Assembly: GCA_963675595.2 (NCBI GenBank) | Contig: CAXXLZ010000001.1 | Location: 1,216,001-1,280,000 of the forward strand | Length of the DNA stretch: 64,000 nucleotides | Source of the DNA: Thermodesulfobacteriota bacterium | GTDB taxonomy: Bacteria > Desulfobacterota > Desulfarculia > JACQYL01 | Reading direction: 5' to 3' | Shown: piece after piece, positions 3,940-10,213 of the stretch | How positions within the stretch are numbered: the stretch's first letter is position 1 | Layout of the letters: each line of letters starts with the position of its first letter | Program-made: the position numbers and the translations under genes | Notes under the pieces: model-generated | Told to the model about the DNA's origin: nothing | The model's input: only the letters and a program-made list of their open reading frames with translations | Database searches by the model: none

Positions 3940-4620
3940 TTGAATCGGCCTATGGATTCCTCTCGAAAATCGTCAGGAAGATTCAACCCCGTTGTGGAGT
4001 TCTCCCGTAGCTTGGAGGACGGAATCGACTTCTGGAGGCTGGACCCGCCCCCCGGTTTTCTGGAACAATGCGCCCTTTATTACACAAGACTGGAACACTG
4101 GAACCGAACGTTCCGCGTCATCGGTTTTCGATCGCCCACGGATGCCGCCACAAAGCTTTTTCTGGATTCGCTCGCTCCGGCTCACCAAATTCCATCCAAT
4201 GCCGTCGTCTTGGACATCGGTTCGGGTGCCGGCTTTCCCGGAATGGTTCTCAAACTGTTTCGTCCCGATTTGCATGTTTGTCTGGTGGACGCCACAAGAA
4301 AAAAGGTCAATTTTCTGAAGGAGATGCGTTTGGAGCTGGGGTTGTCGGGACTTGAAGCGTTTCATCTTCGTTTAGGGGCCGACGCAATAGAGCCGCCCCG
4401 CAGAGGTTCCTTCGACGTGGTGATCAGCAAAGCGGTGGGTCCGGTGGGAACCCTCATGGACCTGAGCCGTCCTTACCTGCGTCCTTCGGGGTTCTGCATT
4501 CTCATGAGGGGCTCCAACGTGGGAGACGCCATAAACACCGCAGACGCGGCCCTCATCAGCGTGATTCCCTATGAGCTTCCTCAAGGCGTGGGTTCACGGA
4601 ACCTGCTTCTGGTTCGATGA
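3940..4620 (+). CDS. rsmG: 16S rRNA m7G527 methyltransferase RsmG (GidB)
   Basis: WN...FLDSL, LDIGSGAGFPG, KKVNFL, FDVVISKAV; start may be ATG 3952. Confidence 0.92.
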   Translation: MNRPMDSSRKSSGRFNPVVEFSRSLEDGIDFWRLDPPPGFLEQCALYYTRLEHWNRTFRVIGFRSPTDAATKLFLDSLAPAHQIPSNAVVLDIGSGAGFPGMVLKLFRPDLHVCLVDATRKKVNFLKEMRLELGLSGLEAFHLRLGADAIEPPRRGSFDVVISKAVGPVGTLMDLSRPYLRPSGFCILMRGSNVGDAINTADAALISVIPYELPQGVGSRNLLLVR

Positions 4621-4678: not shown

Positions 4679-5521
4679 TCAGCAACCAAGAAAGCGTGCC
4701 AGGTTTTCGCCGCAAATCAATCGGATCTGTTCCCGGCTCAGTCCGGCTTCCGCCATTTCCTTGAAGTATCTTGAAGGTGGAAGGAGCGGGAAGTCGCTTC
4801 CGAATACGATGCGTTCCGCGCCGCAAATACGAACGGCGGTCTGATAGACTTCGGGGCGATAAAGGTAGGGAGAAGCGGCCGTATCGTACATTACGTGGCT
4901 CATGGTTTGAGGCACCTCCTTCTTCATTAGTTCATAGAAGAGTATGCCTCCTCCCCAATGAGCGAGGATCACCGGGATGGGCGTTAGAAATCGAAGAAGC
5001 TCGTATAATGCGCGCAGGGTCATTCGGGCTTTGCCCGGATAGACGTGTCCGACGGTTTCGTTGGCGTGGAGAAGCAACGGCACTTCGTGGCGTTCAAGTA
5101 CCTCACGAATCGGGGTCATGATGTCCACCAGCTCCGAACCGTCGGGCTCGCCCTGGTAGAATGCAAGCTCCCCCACGCCTTTCAGTCCGGCCCTAAGGCA
5201 ACGGTCCAGCTCTTCCGCCCCCTGAGGACTGCCGGCGTGGATGCATGCGAACCCGATGAGGCGGTTGGGGTATTTGGTCACGGCCTCGATGACATAGTCG
5301 TTGGCTCGCGAGGCCGTTTCCGGTGAACGCCAGGGAAAGCCGAAGGTGATCGCCTTGTCGACGCCTTGTTCGTCCATCATGGCCACAAGCTCCTCCGCGG
5401 AAACCATTTTCGACTTTTCGCTTCTGTATATGGCCTGAAAGGCGTCCTCGCCGTCCATGAATTGGGAGCGGTCTTCGCGAACCTCGGGGAAAAAGATGTG
5501 AGTGTGGGCATCGATGATCAT
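4679..5521 (-). CDS. Amidohydrolase family 2 protein
   Basis: IIDAHTH, LKGVGEL, LLLH, ILAHWGGG, YDTA, FGSDFP. Confidence 0.9.
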   Translation of the reverse strand: MIIDAHTHIFFPEVREDRSQFMDGEDAFQAIYRSEKSKMVSAEELVAMMDEQGVDKAITFGFPWRSPETASRANDYVIEAVTKYPNRLIGFACIHAGSPQGAEELDRCLRAGLKGVGELAFYQGEPDGSELVDIMTPIREVLERHEVPLLLHANETVGHVYPGKARMTLRALYELLRFLTPIPVILAHWGGGILFYELMKKEVPQTMSHVMYDTAASPYLYRPEVYQTAVRICGAERIVFGSDFPLLPPSRYFKEMAEAGLSREQIRLICGENLARFLGC

Positions 5522-5729
5522 GTTCCGCCTCCTTGGAGCTTTTCGGCTTGTATCCGGGACAATGAATCTTCCGTATCACGCCCGGAGGTTTGAGGCAACC
5601 GAGAACTCCCCCAGGTCCTTGTCCAAGCATGGTGGCGGTTGCGTCGCTTATCGGCGGCCCTCGATTGCTTTGACACCCGGGACGAAATCGAATATAGAAA
5701 ACAAATTAAGAAAGATCCGGGCCCCGACC

Positions 5730-6131
5730 ATGGAACAAACGACACTCATGAACAATGACGAAATGGAGTACCGGGTCGGGAGGAATGAGGATCCTTTTGA
5801 TTTGGTAATCGATAAGTGGGAGCGAATTCGTCGCTTTCTGGGCTCCGCTTTTTCGAGGGACGACTACGTTCTCGCCCTTCATGCAGTTCACGTCGCAATT
5901 CCCTTTTGCAGAGAGTACGGGTCGCAAGGCAACTGTCACAAGTGCCCGATCCACGGCTTATGCCGTGAAGAGGGACCTGCGGGAGAAAGCCTCTGGGAAG
6001 GTCTTTACCGGCTTTTCCAGGCATACGCATGGGGAGGGGATCTTCTACCCCGGGAGCCGATTCTGATGTATACGGGACGGTTTCTCGAAGCTCTCACGGA
6101 AGCGAAGAATACGGCTGGCGCATCGCACTGA
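5730..6131 (+). CDS. Hypothetical protein with C-x8-C-x2-CP-x4-C cluster (possible Fe-S)
   Basis: C-terminal part of ORF 5502-6131; start placed at ATG 5730 downstream of TTGACA (5670); FCREYGSQGNCHKCPIHGLC. Confidence 0.65.
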   Translation: MEQTTLMNNDEMEYRVGRNEDPFDLVIDKWERIRRFLGSAFSRDDYVLALHAVHVAIPFCREYGSQGNCHKCPIHGLCREEGPAGESLWEGLYRLFQAYAWGGDLLPREPILMYTGRFLEALTEAKNTAGASH

Positions 6132-6183
6132 TCTGCCTGAGCGTGGACGCGCCGATACTGTGTATGAATCCGATGGACGATTT

Positions 6184-6354
6184 ATGAAATGCCCTTTGTG
6201 TTCGGGAAAGGTCACTGTGTGCAGAAAGTGACGTTCCGTCTCCTTTCGCTGCATGGACTGCGGCGCCGAATATTCACTAGGCCAACTGATTCGAAACACG
6301 GATGAAGATGTGGAACAACTGCTTGCCTCCATTCGTGTGGACCGTTTCGACTGA
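6184..6354 (+). CDS. Small dual-CxxC probable selenoprotein (in-frame UGA at codon 16)
   Basis: MKCPLCSGKVTVCRK[TGA 6229-6231]RSVSFRCMDCGAEYSLGQLIRNTDEDVEQLLASIRVDRFD; fills the gap before purL; hairpin 3' of the UGA. Confidence 0.8.
6247..6265 (+). promoter_or_regulatory. Putative bacterial SECIS hairpin
   Basis: CGCTGCA-TGGAC-TGCGGCG: 7-bp stem (one G-U), first loop G 24 nt after the UGA. Confidence 0.6.
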
Positions 6355-6380
6355 TTCAATCTCCCTTTTTGGACGCGACG

Positions 6381-9374
6381 ATGCATTACCGAATTGAAAT
6401 CGCACTGAAGCCTCACCTGTTTGACGCCGAAGGCATGCAGATCGCCAAAAAAGCCGGTGATTATCTGGGGTTGGAAGTCTCAAACGTACGATCCATCTCC
6501 GTACTCACCTTCGACGTCGGTTTTTCCTCGGATCAAATGGAACGCGCGAGGTCGGAGCTGTTCACCAATCCGGTGACCCAGATATCCTCCTTTTCTCCTT
6601 TGGCCGAGAATTTCGACTGGATTTTGTGGGTGGGACTTCGCCCGGGAGTGCGCGATAACCCGGGCGCCACCGCTCGTGAGGCTTTGGAGGATCTTTTGGA
6701 CGTGCGGCTCGGCCCCCGGGAAGGAGTCTATGCTTCCCGGATGTACGCCGTTCGCGGTCCCTTGGGGCTTTCCGACGCTCGAAAAATGGCCGGTGAGCTG
6801 CTGGCCAACGACATCATACAACAGTGGAAGGTGTTCTCCGGAGATGAATGGGATCCGTCCACGGGCATCGGATTCATCATTCCCAAAGTGCGTCTGGATC
6901 ACACACCCAAAGTGGCGGTCATACCCGTTGGGGCGACCGAGGAACTGCAGCGGACCAGCATCGAACGCAACCTGGCCTTAAATCCAAGAGACATCCCCAC
7001 GATTCGGAATTACTTCCTGGACTCGAGGGTGCTGGAGGAAAGAAAAAAAGTCGGTTTGGCCGAGCCCACGGACGTGGAGATCGAATACATTTCGCAGGCC
7101 AGAAGCGATCACTGCAATCACAATACCTTTCATGGTCTTTTCCACTACGTGGATCTGGAGTCGGGCGAACGCTCGATTGTGAACGACTTGTTCAAGAGCT
7201 GCATTCAAAGGCCCACCCTGGAAATTCAGAAGGAAAAGCCTTGGGTGATTTCCGTGCTGTGGGACAATGCCGGCGTCGCCGCACTGGATGAGGAGTTCTA
7301 CTACACGATCACCGGCGAGACGCACAACAGTCCTTCGAACATGGAAGCCTACGGGGGTTCGCTGACGGGCATCGTGGGCGTTTACCGCGACCCCATGGGG
7401 ACCGGGCTGGGTTCGAGATTGGCGGCGGGCATGTACGGATTTTGTGTGGGACATCGGGACTATGACGGCCCGTTGAAACCCCGCCTGCATCCGCGCCGAT
7501 TGTTGGACGGCGTCATCGAAGGAGTTCGAGACGGCGGAAACAAAAGCGGGATCCCCACTCCGTACGGTGCGGTCTACTTTCACGACGGTTACATCGGCAA
7601 GTGCTTGGTTTTCGTCACCGCCATAGGTGTCATGCCCGCGCGGGTGAGCGGTCGGGAGTCGGAAAAGAAAAAGACTTCGCCCGGAGACCTCATCGTCATG
7701 GTGGGGGGACGTGTGGGTAAGGACGGGATCCACGGCGTTACCGCGGCTTCGGAAGGATTCAGTGAATCCACGCCGGCTGGTCATGTGCAGATCGGGGACC
7801 CGTATACTCAGAAGAAAATGCACGATTTCCTGTTGGAGGCAAGAGACGAGGGACTCATCCGGTTCATTACGGACAATGGCGGCGGCGGCCTATCCTCCTC
7901 CATAGGTGAGTCCGCGCGGTTCAGCGGCGGATGCGAAGTGGATTTGGACAAAGTACCGCTGAAATACGAGGGGTTGGACCAGTGGGAAATCTGGGTTTCC
8001 GAGTCCCAGGAACGGATGACCGTAGCCGTTTTGCCCGAGCACGAAGCGCGTTTTATGGAGCTCAGTCGGAAACATGCGGTGGAAAGCACGGTGATCGGAC
8101 GTTACGATTCCGGCGGCAAACTCCATATCAGATATAACGGCGAGACGTGCGCCTATGTCGACATGACGTTTCTGGAGAGCGAGTTTCCCCAATGGGAGTT
8201 CGAAGCCGAGTGGAGGTCCCCGCGACTTCGAGGTTTCACGGAGCCGGTCTTAGGTCCCGTGACGGATACCGAAGGGTTTCTCCTCCATATGTTGTCTCGT
8301 CCCAATATAGCAGATAAGGGGTGGATCACGCGGCAGTACGACCATGAGGTGCAGGGAACCAGCGTTATCAAGCCTCTGGTGGGTCGGAAATGCGATGTTC
8401 CATCGGATGCCTTCGTGATTCGGCCGGTGTTGGAAAGGCATGTGGGACTTGCGGCGGGACAGGCCGTCAATCCCGCCTTGTCGGCCATCGACGCATACCA
8501 TATGACCACCAACGTCATCGATGAAGCGGTAAGGCGAATCCTGGCCGTGGGAGCGGACCCGGAACGTATCGGAGGTGTGGATAATTTCTGCTGGCCCAAT
8601 ATCCAGTTCCATCCCACGGACAATCCGGACGGAAAATTCAAAGCGGCCCAACTGGTGCGCGCCAACTGGGCGCTGAGGGATATCTGCTTGTCGTACCGAA
8701 TTCCGCTTCTCTCCGGTAAGGATTCCATGTACATCGACGGCATGATCGAGGGTCCTTTCGGCCGGCGCCGCAAGATCTCCGGGCCCGAGACGCTGCAATT
8801 CACCGCGAGCGGGACGGTGCCCGATGTCCGTCGTTGCACGACCATGGATTTCAAGTTCCCCGGCGACTTGATTTACGTGGTCGGTCTGACGAGAGATGAA
8901 CTGGGCGGGTCCGAGTTTTACGACATACACGGGGACCATGGATTGAACGTTCCCGTGGTACGTCCCGATGAATTCCTCCCGGCTTACCGTGCCTTGCACG
9001 AGGCTATCCTGAAAGAACTGACACCGTCCGTTCATGGGATTTACCGTGGCGGCCTCGCCGTGCATCTCGCCCTGTGCTGCATGGGCGGCGAACTAGGAGC
9101 GGATTTCGATCTGGACGGCTTGCCTGCAGAGGGAGGGCTCAAGGACGACGTGCTCTTGTATTCGGAAAGCGCCGGTCGATTCATTCTGACCGTGGCACCC
9201 GACCGACAACGTGAATTCGAAAGGCTGTTCAGGGGGATTCCCTGTTTTCTCGCGGGACACGTTACATCCGAGGATTTCCTGACCATTCGGGGAGCTCACG
9301 GCAGAGTTCTGCTCCGTGTTCCAGTATCTGATTTGAAATCCTCCTGGAAATCTCCGTTTGGAGGGCTGATCTGA
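6381..9374 (+). CDS. purL: FGAM synthase PurL with N-terminal PurS-like domains
   Basis: SDHCNHNTF, ETHNSPS, GRVGKDGIHG, DNGGGGLSS, SESQERM, DNFCW, SGKDS, YSESAGRF. Confidence 0.96.
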   Translation: MHYRIEIALKPHLFDAEGMQIAKKAGDYLGLEVSNVRSISVLTFDVGFSSDQMERARSELFTNPVTQISSFSPLAENFDWILWVGLRPGVRDNPGATAREALEDLLDVRLGPREGVYASRMYAVRGPLGLSDARKMAGELLANDIIQQWKVFSGDEWDPSTGIGFIIPKVRLDHTPKVAVIPVGATEELQRTSIERNLALNPRDIPTIRNYFLDSRVLEERKKVGLAEPTDVEIEYISQARSDHCNHNTFHGLFHYVDLESGERSIVNDLFKSCIQRPTLEIQKEKPWVISVLWDNAGVAALDEEFYYTITGETHNSPSNMEAYGGSLTGIVGVYRDPMGTGLGSRLAAGMYGFCVGHRDYDGPLKPRLHPRRLLDGVIEGVRDGGNKSGIPTPYGAVYFHDGYIGKCLVFVTAIGVMPARVSGRESEKKKTSPGDLIVMVGGRVGKDGIHGVTAASEGFSESTPAGHVQIGDPYTQKKMHDFLLEARDEGLIRFITDNGGGGLSSSIGESARFSGGCEVDLDKVPLKYEGLDQWEIWVSESQERMTVAVLPEHEARFMELSRKHAVESTVIGRYDSGGKLHIRYNGETCAYVDMTFLESEFPQWEFEAEWRSPRLRGFTEPVLGPVTDTEGFLLHMLSRPNIADKGWITRQYDHEVQGTSVIKPLVGRKCDVPSDAFVIRPVLERHVGLAAGQAVNPALSAIDAYHMTTNVIDEAVRRILAVGADPERIGGVDNFCWPNIQFHPTDNPDGKFKAAQLVRANWALRDICLSYRIPLLSGKDSMYIDGMIEGPFGRRRKISGPETLQFTASGTVPDVRRCTTMDFKFPGDLIYVVGLTRDELGGSEFYDIHGDHGLNVPVVRPDEFLPAYRALHEAILKELTPSVHGIYRGGLAVHLALCCMGGELGADFDLDGLPAEGGLKDDVLLYSESAGRFILTVAPDRQREFERLFRGIPCFLAGHVTSEDFLTIRGAHGRVLLRVPVSDLKSSWKSPFGGLI

Positions 9375-10213
9375 TGACCGCACCTGTTCGAGCTCTGGTC
9401 CTGACGGGTTATGGTATCAACTGTGATCATGAAACCGCATACGCTCTCAGACTGGCGGGAGCCGCTCCGGAGCGGGTCCACATCAACGAGCTGACGGGGC
9501 CCACGGGAGACCGCGGCAAGAAGCTCGCCGATCATCATATGTTGGTCTTCGACGGTGGATTCAGTTGGGGGGACGATCACGGCGCCGGTGTTCTTCTGGC
9601 GGCCCGCCTAAGAACCCACATAGGGGAGGAAATCCTTCGTTTTTTGGCTGACGGAAAACTGGTGTTGGGCATCTGCAACGGCTTTCAGGCTCTGGTCAAT
9701 CTGGGTTTGCTTCCCGGAATCGCCGGAGATTACACGAAACGGTCGGTGGCTCTGACCTGGAACGACTGTGGAAACTTCCAGGACCGATGGGTTCGCATGA
9801 CCGTGAATTCGCAATCTCCCTGCGTTTTCACTCAAGGCTTCACCGAACTGGAACTGCCGATTCGACATGGCGAGGGGAAGCTCGTGGCGGAGGAAAGCAT
9901 CCTGGACCACATGGAAACCGAGGGGCAGATCGTGCTGCAATATGCCCGCGAGGACGGTTCCCTCGCCGGAGGTGTCTTTCCGGACAATCCCAACGGCTCT
10001 CTGCGCGACGTGGCGGGAATCTGCGATCCCACGGGAAGAGTATTCGGCTTAATGCCCCACCCCGAAGCCTATAATCACCTGACGAACCATCCCCGATGGA
10101 CGTGGGATGCGGAGCTGAGGCGGCGAAGAGGTGAGGCCCTCACCTCCGAGGAGGGCATCGGCATACAGCTCCTGCGCAACGGGGTGGAATACATCAAGCG
10201 AAACCTCATATAG
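9374..10213 (+). CDS. purQ: FGAM synthase glutaminase subunit PurQ
   Basis: GYGINCD, GGFSWGD, LGICNGFQ, HGEG, NPNGS, GLMPHPE. Confidence 0.96.
   Translation: MTAPVRALVLTGYGINCDHETAYALRLAGAAPERVHINELTGPTGDRGKKLADHHMLVFDGGFSWGDDHGAGVLLAARLRTHIGEEILRFLADGKLVLGICNGFQALVNLGLLPGIAGDYTKRSVALTWNDCGNFQDRWVRMTVNSQSPCVFTQGFTELELPIRHGEGKLVAEESILDHMETEGQIVLQYAREDGSLAGGVFPDNPNGSLRDVAGICDPTGRVFGLMPHPEAYNHLTNHPRWTWDAELRRRRGEALTSEEGIGIQLLRNGVEYIKRNLI

Follow-up and report, generated by a model that had tools for sequence, protein, structure and literature searches.

The small gene and its family

The window, by which we mean the whole stretch of 64,000 nucleotides analyzed here, contains a small gene that ordinary ORF calling splits at a UGA codon. 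Recognizing its frame rescues the gene. The ORF listing under translation table 11 gives fragments only at this locus (6253-6354, and 6189-6305 in another frame), and the gene therefore appears as a gap. The features of the region are as follows.

3940-4620: rsmG
4679-5521, minus strand: amidohydrolase gene
5502-6131, plus strand: ORF without a Pfam or NCBIfam family (two homologues likewise), directly upstream of the small gene
6184-6354, plus strand: predicted selenoprotein coding sequence of 56 residues, translated with TGA as U, stop TGA 6352-6354 included; family NF041197 / OS_HP3
6229-6231, plus strand: UGA predicted to be read as selenocysteine, residue 16; the TGA/Cys column among 51 loci
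6247-6265, plus strand: SECIS-like hairpin of -9.4 kcal/mol, with a 7-bp stem (G-U pair included) and a 5-nt loop with two G
6381-9374, plus strand: neighboring purS-purL fusion (FGAM synthase subunit); PurL models match residues 232-997
9374-10213, plus strand: purQ, overlapping the purSL stop

Read on the plus strand from ATG 6184, the frame runs through MKCPLCSGKVTVCRK to the TGA at 6229-6231 and is followed by 40 further codons and the TGA stop at 6352-6354. The choice of ATG 6184 as start agrees with the homologues, many of which begin two residues ahead of the first Cys. Translation with TGA as U confirmed what a sequence-only reading of this DNA had proposed, namely a frame that opens at ATG 6184, crosses an in-frame TGA and stays open to 6354, and the two CxxC knuckles that it had placed on either side of this TGA are C3-x2-C6 and C23-x2-C26. 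The string C13-R-K-U16 adds a CxxU in the window protein. The distance of 26 nt to purL, also given in that reading, holds for the purL ATG at 6381, which is supported by homology: the ORF listing stretches purL to TTG 6369, and the homologues align from the Met at 6381.

Contigs from three runs and three studies, one of which (run X1) may be the window's own source, span 6100-6450 in one piece each, and no change at the TGA is itemized. The itemized changes within the ORF lie at 6216, 6240 and 6286, two of them 3' of the TGA. They fall on third or first codon positions and leave Thr, Val and Leu unchanged; this synonymy, with codons read by eye, covers the itemized changes only, as one contig (run X4, record 4) has seven differing letters in the stretch, four of which are itemized.

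Downstream, the purS-purL fusion of about 997 residues carries a PurS domain at its N-terminus (PF02700, E 1.8e-10), followed by a linker. The PurL equivalog models match this protein below their cut-offs. Upstream, the ORF at 5502-6131 is conserved in three of four relatives of the order from about residue 77, so that its true start is probably an internal Met. It contains a four-Cys cluster of the form C-x8-C-x2-C-x5-C, and one homologue gives a sub-threshold match to the endonuclease III iron-sulfur loop (E 0.012). An Rfam scan of 5300-6600 with E values up to 1 returned no match, and hence no riboswitch or catalogued element lies ahead of purL.

With U read as C, the small protein matches NCBIfam NF041197 over profile positions 1-53 of 53 (E 1.3e-15, 57.3 bits against a curated cut-off of 40). 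This model is named CxxC_Se_CxxC, 'dual CXXC motif small (seleno)protein', and the resemblance to this family that had been noted from the sequence is thus a full-length match above cut-off. A six-frame search of the 6.79-Mb genome with TGA read through gave 47.8 bits at the locus, the sole above-cut-off NF041197 match. No Pfam family reaches its threshold for the window protein. Lar_restr_allev (PF14354) scores 25.4 bits against a threshold of 28.6, and Zn_ribbon_6 (PF07191) stays at 20 bits against 25, with a match restricted to profile positions 31-56 of 67.

The family has been in print for some time. As OS_HP3 it was defined from the Olavius symbiont metagenome (Zhang et al., 2007; PMC1976440); the passages of that paper devoted to it describe two selenoproteins with predicted SECIS elements, at that time without a Cys homologue, and give no function. 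The table of a 2026 review (PMC13188914) lists the family with the motif RxU and assigns a further entry, 'Hypothetical protein DW, GxU', to the same model. In the relevant part of a 2025 paper, the OS_HP3 of one Desulfosarcina strain is the single known selenoprotein that its predictor missed (PMC12013277). NCBI also uses the NF041197 family name for Cys-containing homologues. The window protein shows the traits of this family: a size of about 55 residues, two CxxC knuckles, a central Sec/Cys column with R14-K15-U16 (RxU), and a hairpin past the UGA. It has Val in place of a frequent Cys four residues from the end of the C-terminal motif and it possesses Cys13, but nothing that defines the family differs; what is peculiar to the window's order is the purSL neighborhood. 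The gene is therefore an ordinary member of a family published in 2007 and contained in NCBI naming models, and not a new one. Because the family is known and named, the gene itself adds one more member only. What the analysis adds is the lack of a conserved partner, a SECIS-like element that is built from knuckle codons and sits in a shifted register in one clade, and a predicted position of the Sec residue.

The UGA column and the downstream hairpin

Recoding of the UGA presupposes a genome that can insert selenocysteine, and the presence of the sel genes had been named as a check. Indeed, selA (621 bits), selB (404 bits) and selD (386 bits) were all found above cut-off, and a tRNA-SeC (anticodon tca) is also present. 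The selD gene (L008, G000:C2:3334045-3337962) likewise carries an in-frame TGA and is a selenoprotein gene in its own right.

We then compared the column across genomes. Among 61 related genomes the family occurs in six, each time with one in-frame TGA. An evenly drawn sample of the phylum comprised 401 genomes, of which 94 match at E <=1e-4. Matches in 76 of them are above cut-off, 53 with one in-frame TGA and 23 with none, while none of 14 control genomes matched NF041197. The small protein is widespread. Many genomes of the phylum sample also carry a weaker class of NF041197 match, with E values of about 1e-9 to 1e-4 and coverage from model position 1 to 42-51; it nearly always has one TGA and is often a second copy per genome. 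This class is absent from the window's genome and may correspond to the GxU entry of the 2026 review table (PMC13188914), 'hypothetical protein DW'.

For the detailed comparison, 50 loci, about one per genus, were combined with the window to give a set of 51. The column at residue 16 is TGA in 42 of these and Cys in nine, which answers whether homologues have Sec or Cys at this position. C3, C6, U/C16, C23 and C26 are the sole invariant columns of the 51-sequence alignment. Conservation continues 3' of the TGA, with an aromatic residue at position 30, Asp40, Glu44, Leu47 and a terminal D-R-[LIF], so that the impression of a protein-like frame beyond the TGA was well founded. One member, L090 (G014:C1:2054691-2062843, approximately 3992-4153), has C-x-C rather than C-x-x-C as its first knuckle and still scores 56 bits.

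The CxxU motif, on which the sequence-only reading had laid weight, fared less uniformly. The string is present in the window protein as C13-R-K-U16; as a family motif it does not hold, since 12 of 42 Sec forms and none of the nine Cys forms have Cys13. The conserved family string is [RK]-x-U-[RK]. A conserved CxxU pair is thus missing and the predicted fold is a zinc ribbon rather than a thioredoxin, and the protein does not belong with the thioredoxin-like CxxU/CxxC proteins.

These observations bear on the alternative of an ordinary stop or an error at the TGA, leaving a 15-residue peptide and an unrelated 33-codon ORF (6253-6354), or a pseudogene. The ORF listing under table 11, with nothing but fragments (6189-6305 in another frame and 6253-6354), speaks for such a reading. 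Nevertheless, the TGA column recurs in 42 genera and aligns to Cys in nine others, the full-length HMM match runs across it, the independent contigs of three studies show no itemized change there, and a SECIS-like hairpin as well as the complete Sec machinery are present. We consider a stop or an error highly improbable. From the sequence comparisons we conclude, with a probability of roughly 0.88, that 6184-6354 is a genuine 56-residue NF041197 selenoprotein gene with its UGA recoded to Sec. The UGA at 6229-6231 would be decoded by the genome's own SelA/SelB/SelD/tRNA-Sec system.

In SECIS elements of the fdhF type a hairpin follows the UGA at a short distance and exposes a G in a small apical loop. 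The hairpin at 6247-6265, for which a G-containing loop and SECIS-like spacing had been claimed from the sequence, was recovered at exactly this location and with -9.4 kcal/mol. Its stem begins 18 nt past the U of the UGA and consists of the codons for Arg22-Cys23 and Cys26-Gly27-Ala28. The hairpin of selD in the same genome starts at +15 after the TGA and has a stem of 7 bp and a loop of 5 nt whose first letter is G. The family element thus resembles bacterial SECIS elements such as those of fdhF and of this selD in starting 15-20 nt past the UGA and in its small apical loop with a G, but differs from them in that the codons for the second zinc knuckle form its stem and that the register in one clade is shifted upstream by about 6 nt.

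A plain fold of 6226-6290 did not stand out from shuffled sequences (z 0.08; 101 of 200 shuffles fold equally well). It was replaced by a comparison with the Cys forms and with all TGA contexts of the window, using the best ungapped hairpin within 50 nt past the codon. Across the 1904 TGA triplets of the window this best hairpin has a mean of -3.66 kcal/mol; 61 triplets (3.2%) have an equally stable ungapped downstream hairpin, and 31 (1.6%) have one at +10 to +25 whose loop contains a G. The mean is -9.78 kcal/mol for the Sec forms (n=42), with 31 of 42 at or below -7.5, compared to -4.74 kcal/mol for the Cys forms (n=9), with two of nine at or below this value.

In the 42 Sec forms, helix columns 19-24 with 32-37 are paired in 83.7% of cells. 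Shuffles reach 77.0 +/- 1.3% (none of 500 attains 83.7%), and slid partners give 17.5-56.7%. Cells altered on both sides of the helix number 15, against 5.5 +/- 2.0; in this test the sequences are related, the structure was derived from the same sequences and Cys codons dictate two of the six pairs. As invariant Cys codons make up part of the hairpin, the constraints from coding and from RNA are intertwined here. Two observations help to separate them. First, all seven members linked to fabD (L046, L049, L050, L062, L063, L068 and L074) place the hairpin about 6 nt upstream of the usual register and close it with a GGU(G) loop, which argues for selection on the RNA structure rather than for a by-product of coding. 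Second, Gly27, whose codon pairs with the Arg22-Cys23 codons, is found in 29 of 42 Sec forms and in three of nine Cys forms, and this enrichment speaks for selection on the RNA itself. The hairpin at 6247-6265 would serve as the recoding signal, built from the codons of the second CxxC knuckle. A SECIS-like element within a zinc knuckle, the shifted register of one clade and the Gly27 enrichment together make this a small, clean case of an RNA signal shaping a protein motif.

Gene neighborhoods across the phylum

The position of the small gene ahead of purL had suggested a functional link to purine synthesis. According to this proposal, a selenium- or redox-responsive zinc-ribbon sensor or carrier would act on purine synthesis through FGAM synthase (PurSL-PurQ) and be co-transcribed with it. 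The arrangement in the window is in line with such a link: the gene is on the same strand, 26 nt ahead of purSL, and neither a promoter- nor a terminator-like site was found in a scan of 5400-6500, a weak result given that shuffles yield about one. From strand, gap and the missing terminator-like site, one transcription unit comprising the small gene and purSL is plausible. Four other genomes of the window's order have the small gene directly ahead of purSL, and the order amidohydrolase (minus strand), upstream ORF, small gene, purSL, purQ is kept in these relatives (n=4; upstream ORF in three of four). Furthermore, another clade has the gene after pyrE, which also belongs to nucleotide synthesis.

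Beyond this order the picture is different. The adjacency to purL is restricted to five of 51 loci, all from the window's order and never outside it, and shared descent alone predicts a conserved gene order among close relatives. The synteny check on the proposed link thus turned out negative outside the order, and elsewhere the gene stands next to unrelated housekeeping genes. Already in a genome of the same class and another family, a gene of the cystathionine gamma-synthase family lies downstream of it. In seven loci fabD is directly upstream on the same strand, with gcvH, moaA and murA further upstream. Seven loci have a divergent Obg-like GTPase gene, most of them with a convergent alaS downstream and several with rpoD nearby, and three to four have a divergent argJ with truA downstream. 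The gene pyrE is directly upstream in six of 51 loci (12 of the 36 loci of the first set); these pyrE-linked members are all Cys forms and end in I-[IV]-Y-D. Single neighbors comprise asd, def, rlmE, meaB, a modA-like gene, a dnaQ-like exonuclease, a heptosyltransferase, an MFS transporter, a double-cubane reductase, a LuxR-type regulator and a cystathionine gamma-synthase-family gene. Neighbor names were taken from one representative per cluster and from 20 of the 31 unclustered same-strand neighbors. Among the annotated neighbors of the 51 loci we found no common partner or pathway. In the case of L014 / L094 (G004), the adjacent purL aligns in several pieces and different frames; this assembly is 71% complete, and the pieces may reflect an assembly error or a disrupted gene.

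The adjacency to purL, confined to one order, is best read as inherited synteny, and a sensor or carrier acting on purine synthesis appears improbable to us. Without a conserved partner across 51 genera, the position next to purL is unusable for assigning a purine role. A combined reading would save part of the link: the selenoprotein could have been recruited in the window's order as a selenium-dependent accessory factor of FGAM synthase, while the family as a whole would act as a portable zinc-ribbon module and serve PyrE, FabD or PurSL with its exposed Sec, depending on the clade. If the recruitment were real, a shared mRNA with the PurS-PurL fusion and PurQ would let purine synthesis respond to the selenium or redox state. 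We regard the two parts taken together as very unlikely. The reading that we prefer is a general housekeeping factor that is not specific to purines, and the location ahead of purSL-purQ would then be synteny inherited within one order.

Predicted fold and the role of residue 16

AlphaFold2 was run on the 51-sequence alignment and returned a model with a mean pLDDT of 73.8 (83-89 for residues 1-30, below 50 for the last three). The model has strands at 9-15, 18-23 and 29-31 and helices at 32-38 and 40-48. The product is accordingly predicted to consist of a zinc ribbon of three strands, then an acidic helix and finally a flexible tail, and the zinc ribbon proposed from the sequence has its counterpart in this model. 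C3, C6, C23 and C26 probably hold one metal ion. Residue 16 is found in a two-residue turn between two long predicted strands of seven residues each. Deduced from the secondary structure alone, this hairpin turn places it at the far end from the metal site and exposed to solvent. Its flanks are basic, with R/K14 in 38 and R/K17 in 39 of the 42 Sec forms. An invariant Sec/Cys at a predicted exposed, basic hairpin turn provides a concrete residue and geometry for testing.

Searches for related structures led to generic small zinc-ribbon or beta folds only. Foldseek against the PDB gave no match at E <=0.001, the best being ZifS (8yoz) at E 0.21, and VIA-align against 48,161 chains gave none at Z >=5 (best Z 3.6). 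A literature search on ZifS/TTHA0897 turned up only materials-science papers. Fused or longer relatives at E <=0.001 were not found among 8000 scored candidates, which is weak evidence. Generic zinc ribbons, namely Lar (PF14354), HVO_2753, ECs_2282, LysW, RNA polymerase ribbons and ZifS (8yoz), share the predicted three strands and two knuckles with the small protein. However, these matches are weak and reach neither a family threshold nor a significant structural score, and the invariant Sec/Cys at the hairpin turn is absent from all of them.

A sequence profile search against the PDB gave two weak leads, and these concern the main alternative for residue 16, in which Sec16 is a metal ligand and not a free redox center. 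In that case C3, C6, U16 and C23 would be the ligands with which the protein binds or traffics a metal (Zn, Fe, Ni or a soft metal), and C26 would be a fifth or an alternative one. Among PDB sequences the nickel chaperone HypA matches best, with its zinc domain (3a43_A, E 1.4e-4). In the YfgJ-like proteins 2jrp_A (E 1.9e-4) and 2jne_A (E 6.8e-3), the four Cys of the second ribbon align with C3, C6, C16 and C23 at identical spacing, C-x2-C-x9-C-x6-C, and this keeps a role of residue 16 as metal ligand alive. Some Cys homologues carry a precomputed PF07191 match, and five invariant Cys/Sec residues are one above the need of a zinc ribbon. On the other hand, the AlphaFold model puts residue 16 at a turn far from both knuckles, the PDB matches are weak and driven by Cys, and the window protein remains at 20 bits on PF07191, below the threshold of 25. 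It also differs from the PF07191 proteins in having a single and not a double ribbon, a second CxxC knuckle and a C-terminal acidic helix. We know of no Sec forms of YfgJ. Taken together, a metal-ligand role of Sec16, with the ligand set given above, seems rather unlikely.

We tentatively favor a reactive redox or transfer center, formed by the exposed selenolate, as the most likely working mode, although the odds for it are below even. The selenolate would bond transiently to a partner through a selenenylsulfide or persulfide-type linkage. For many members, a Cys of the protein's own flexible C-terminal tail could take the place of this partner. Extra Cys that might resolve a selenenylsulfide are common without being universal: among the 42 Sec forms C13 is present in 12, C52 in 17 and C50 in six. 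The window protein has C13 only of these three, and its order relatives L091, L092 and L094 have none.
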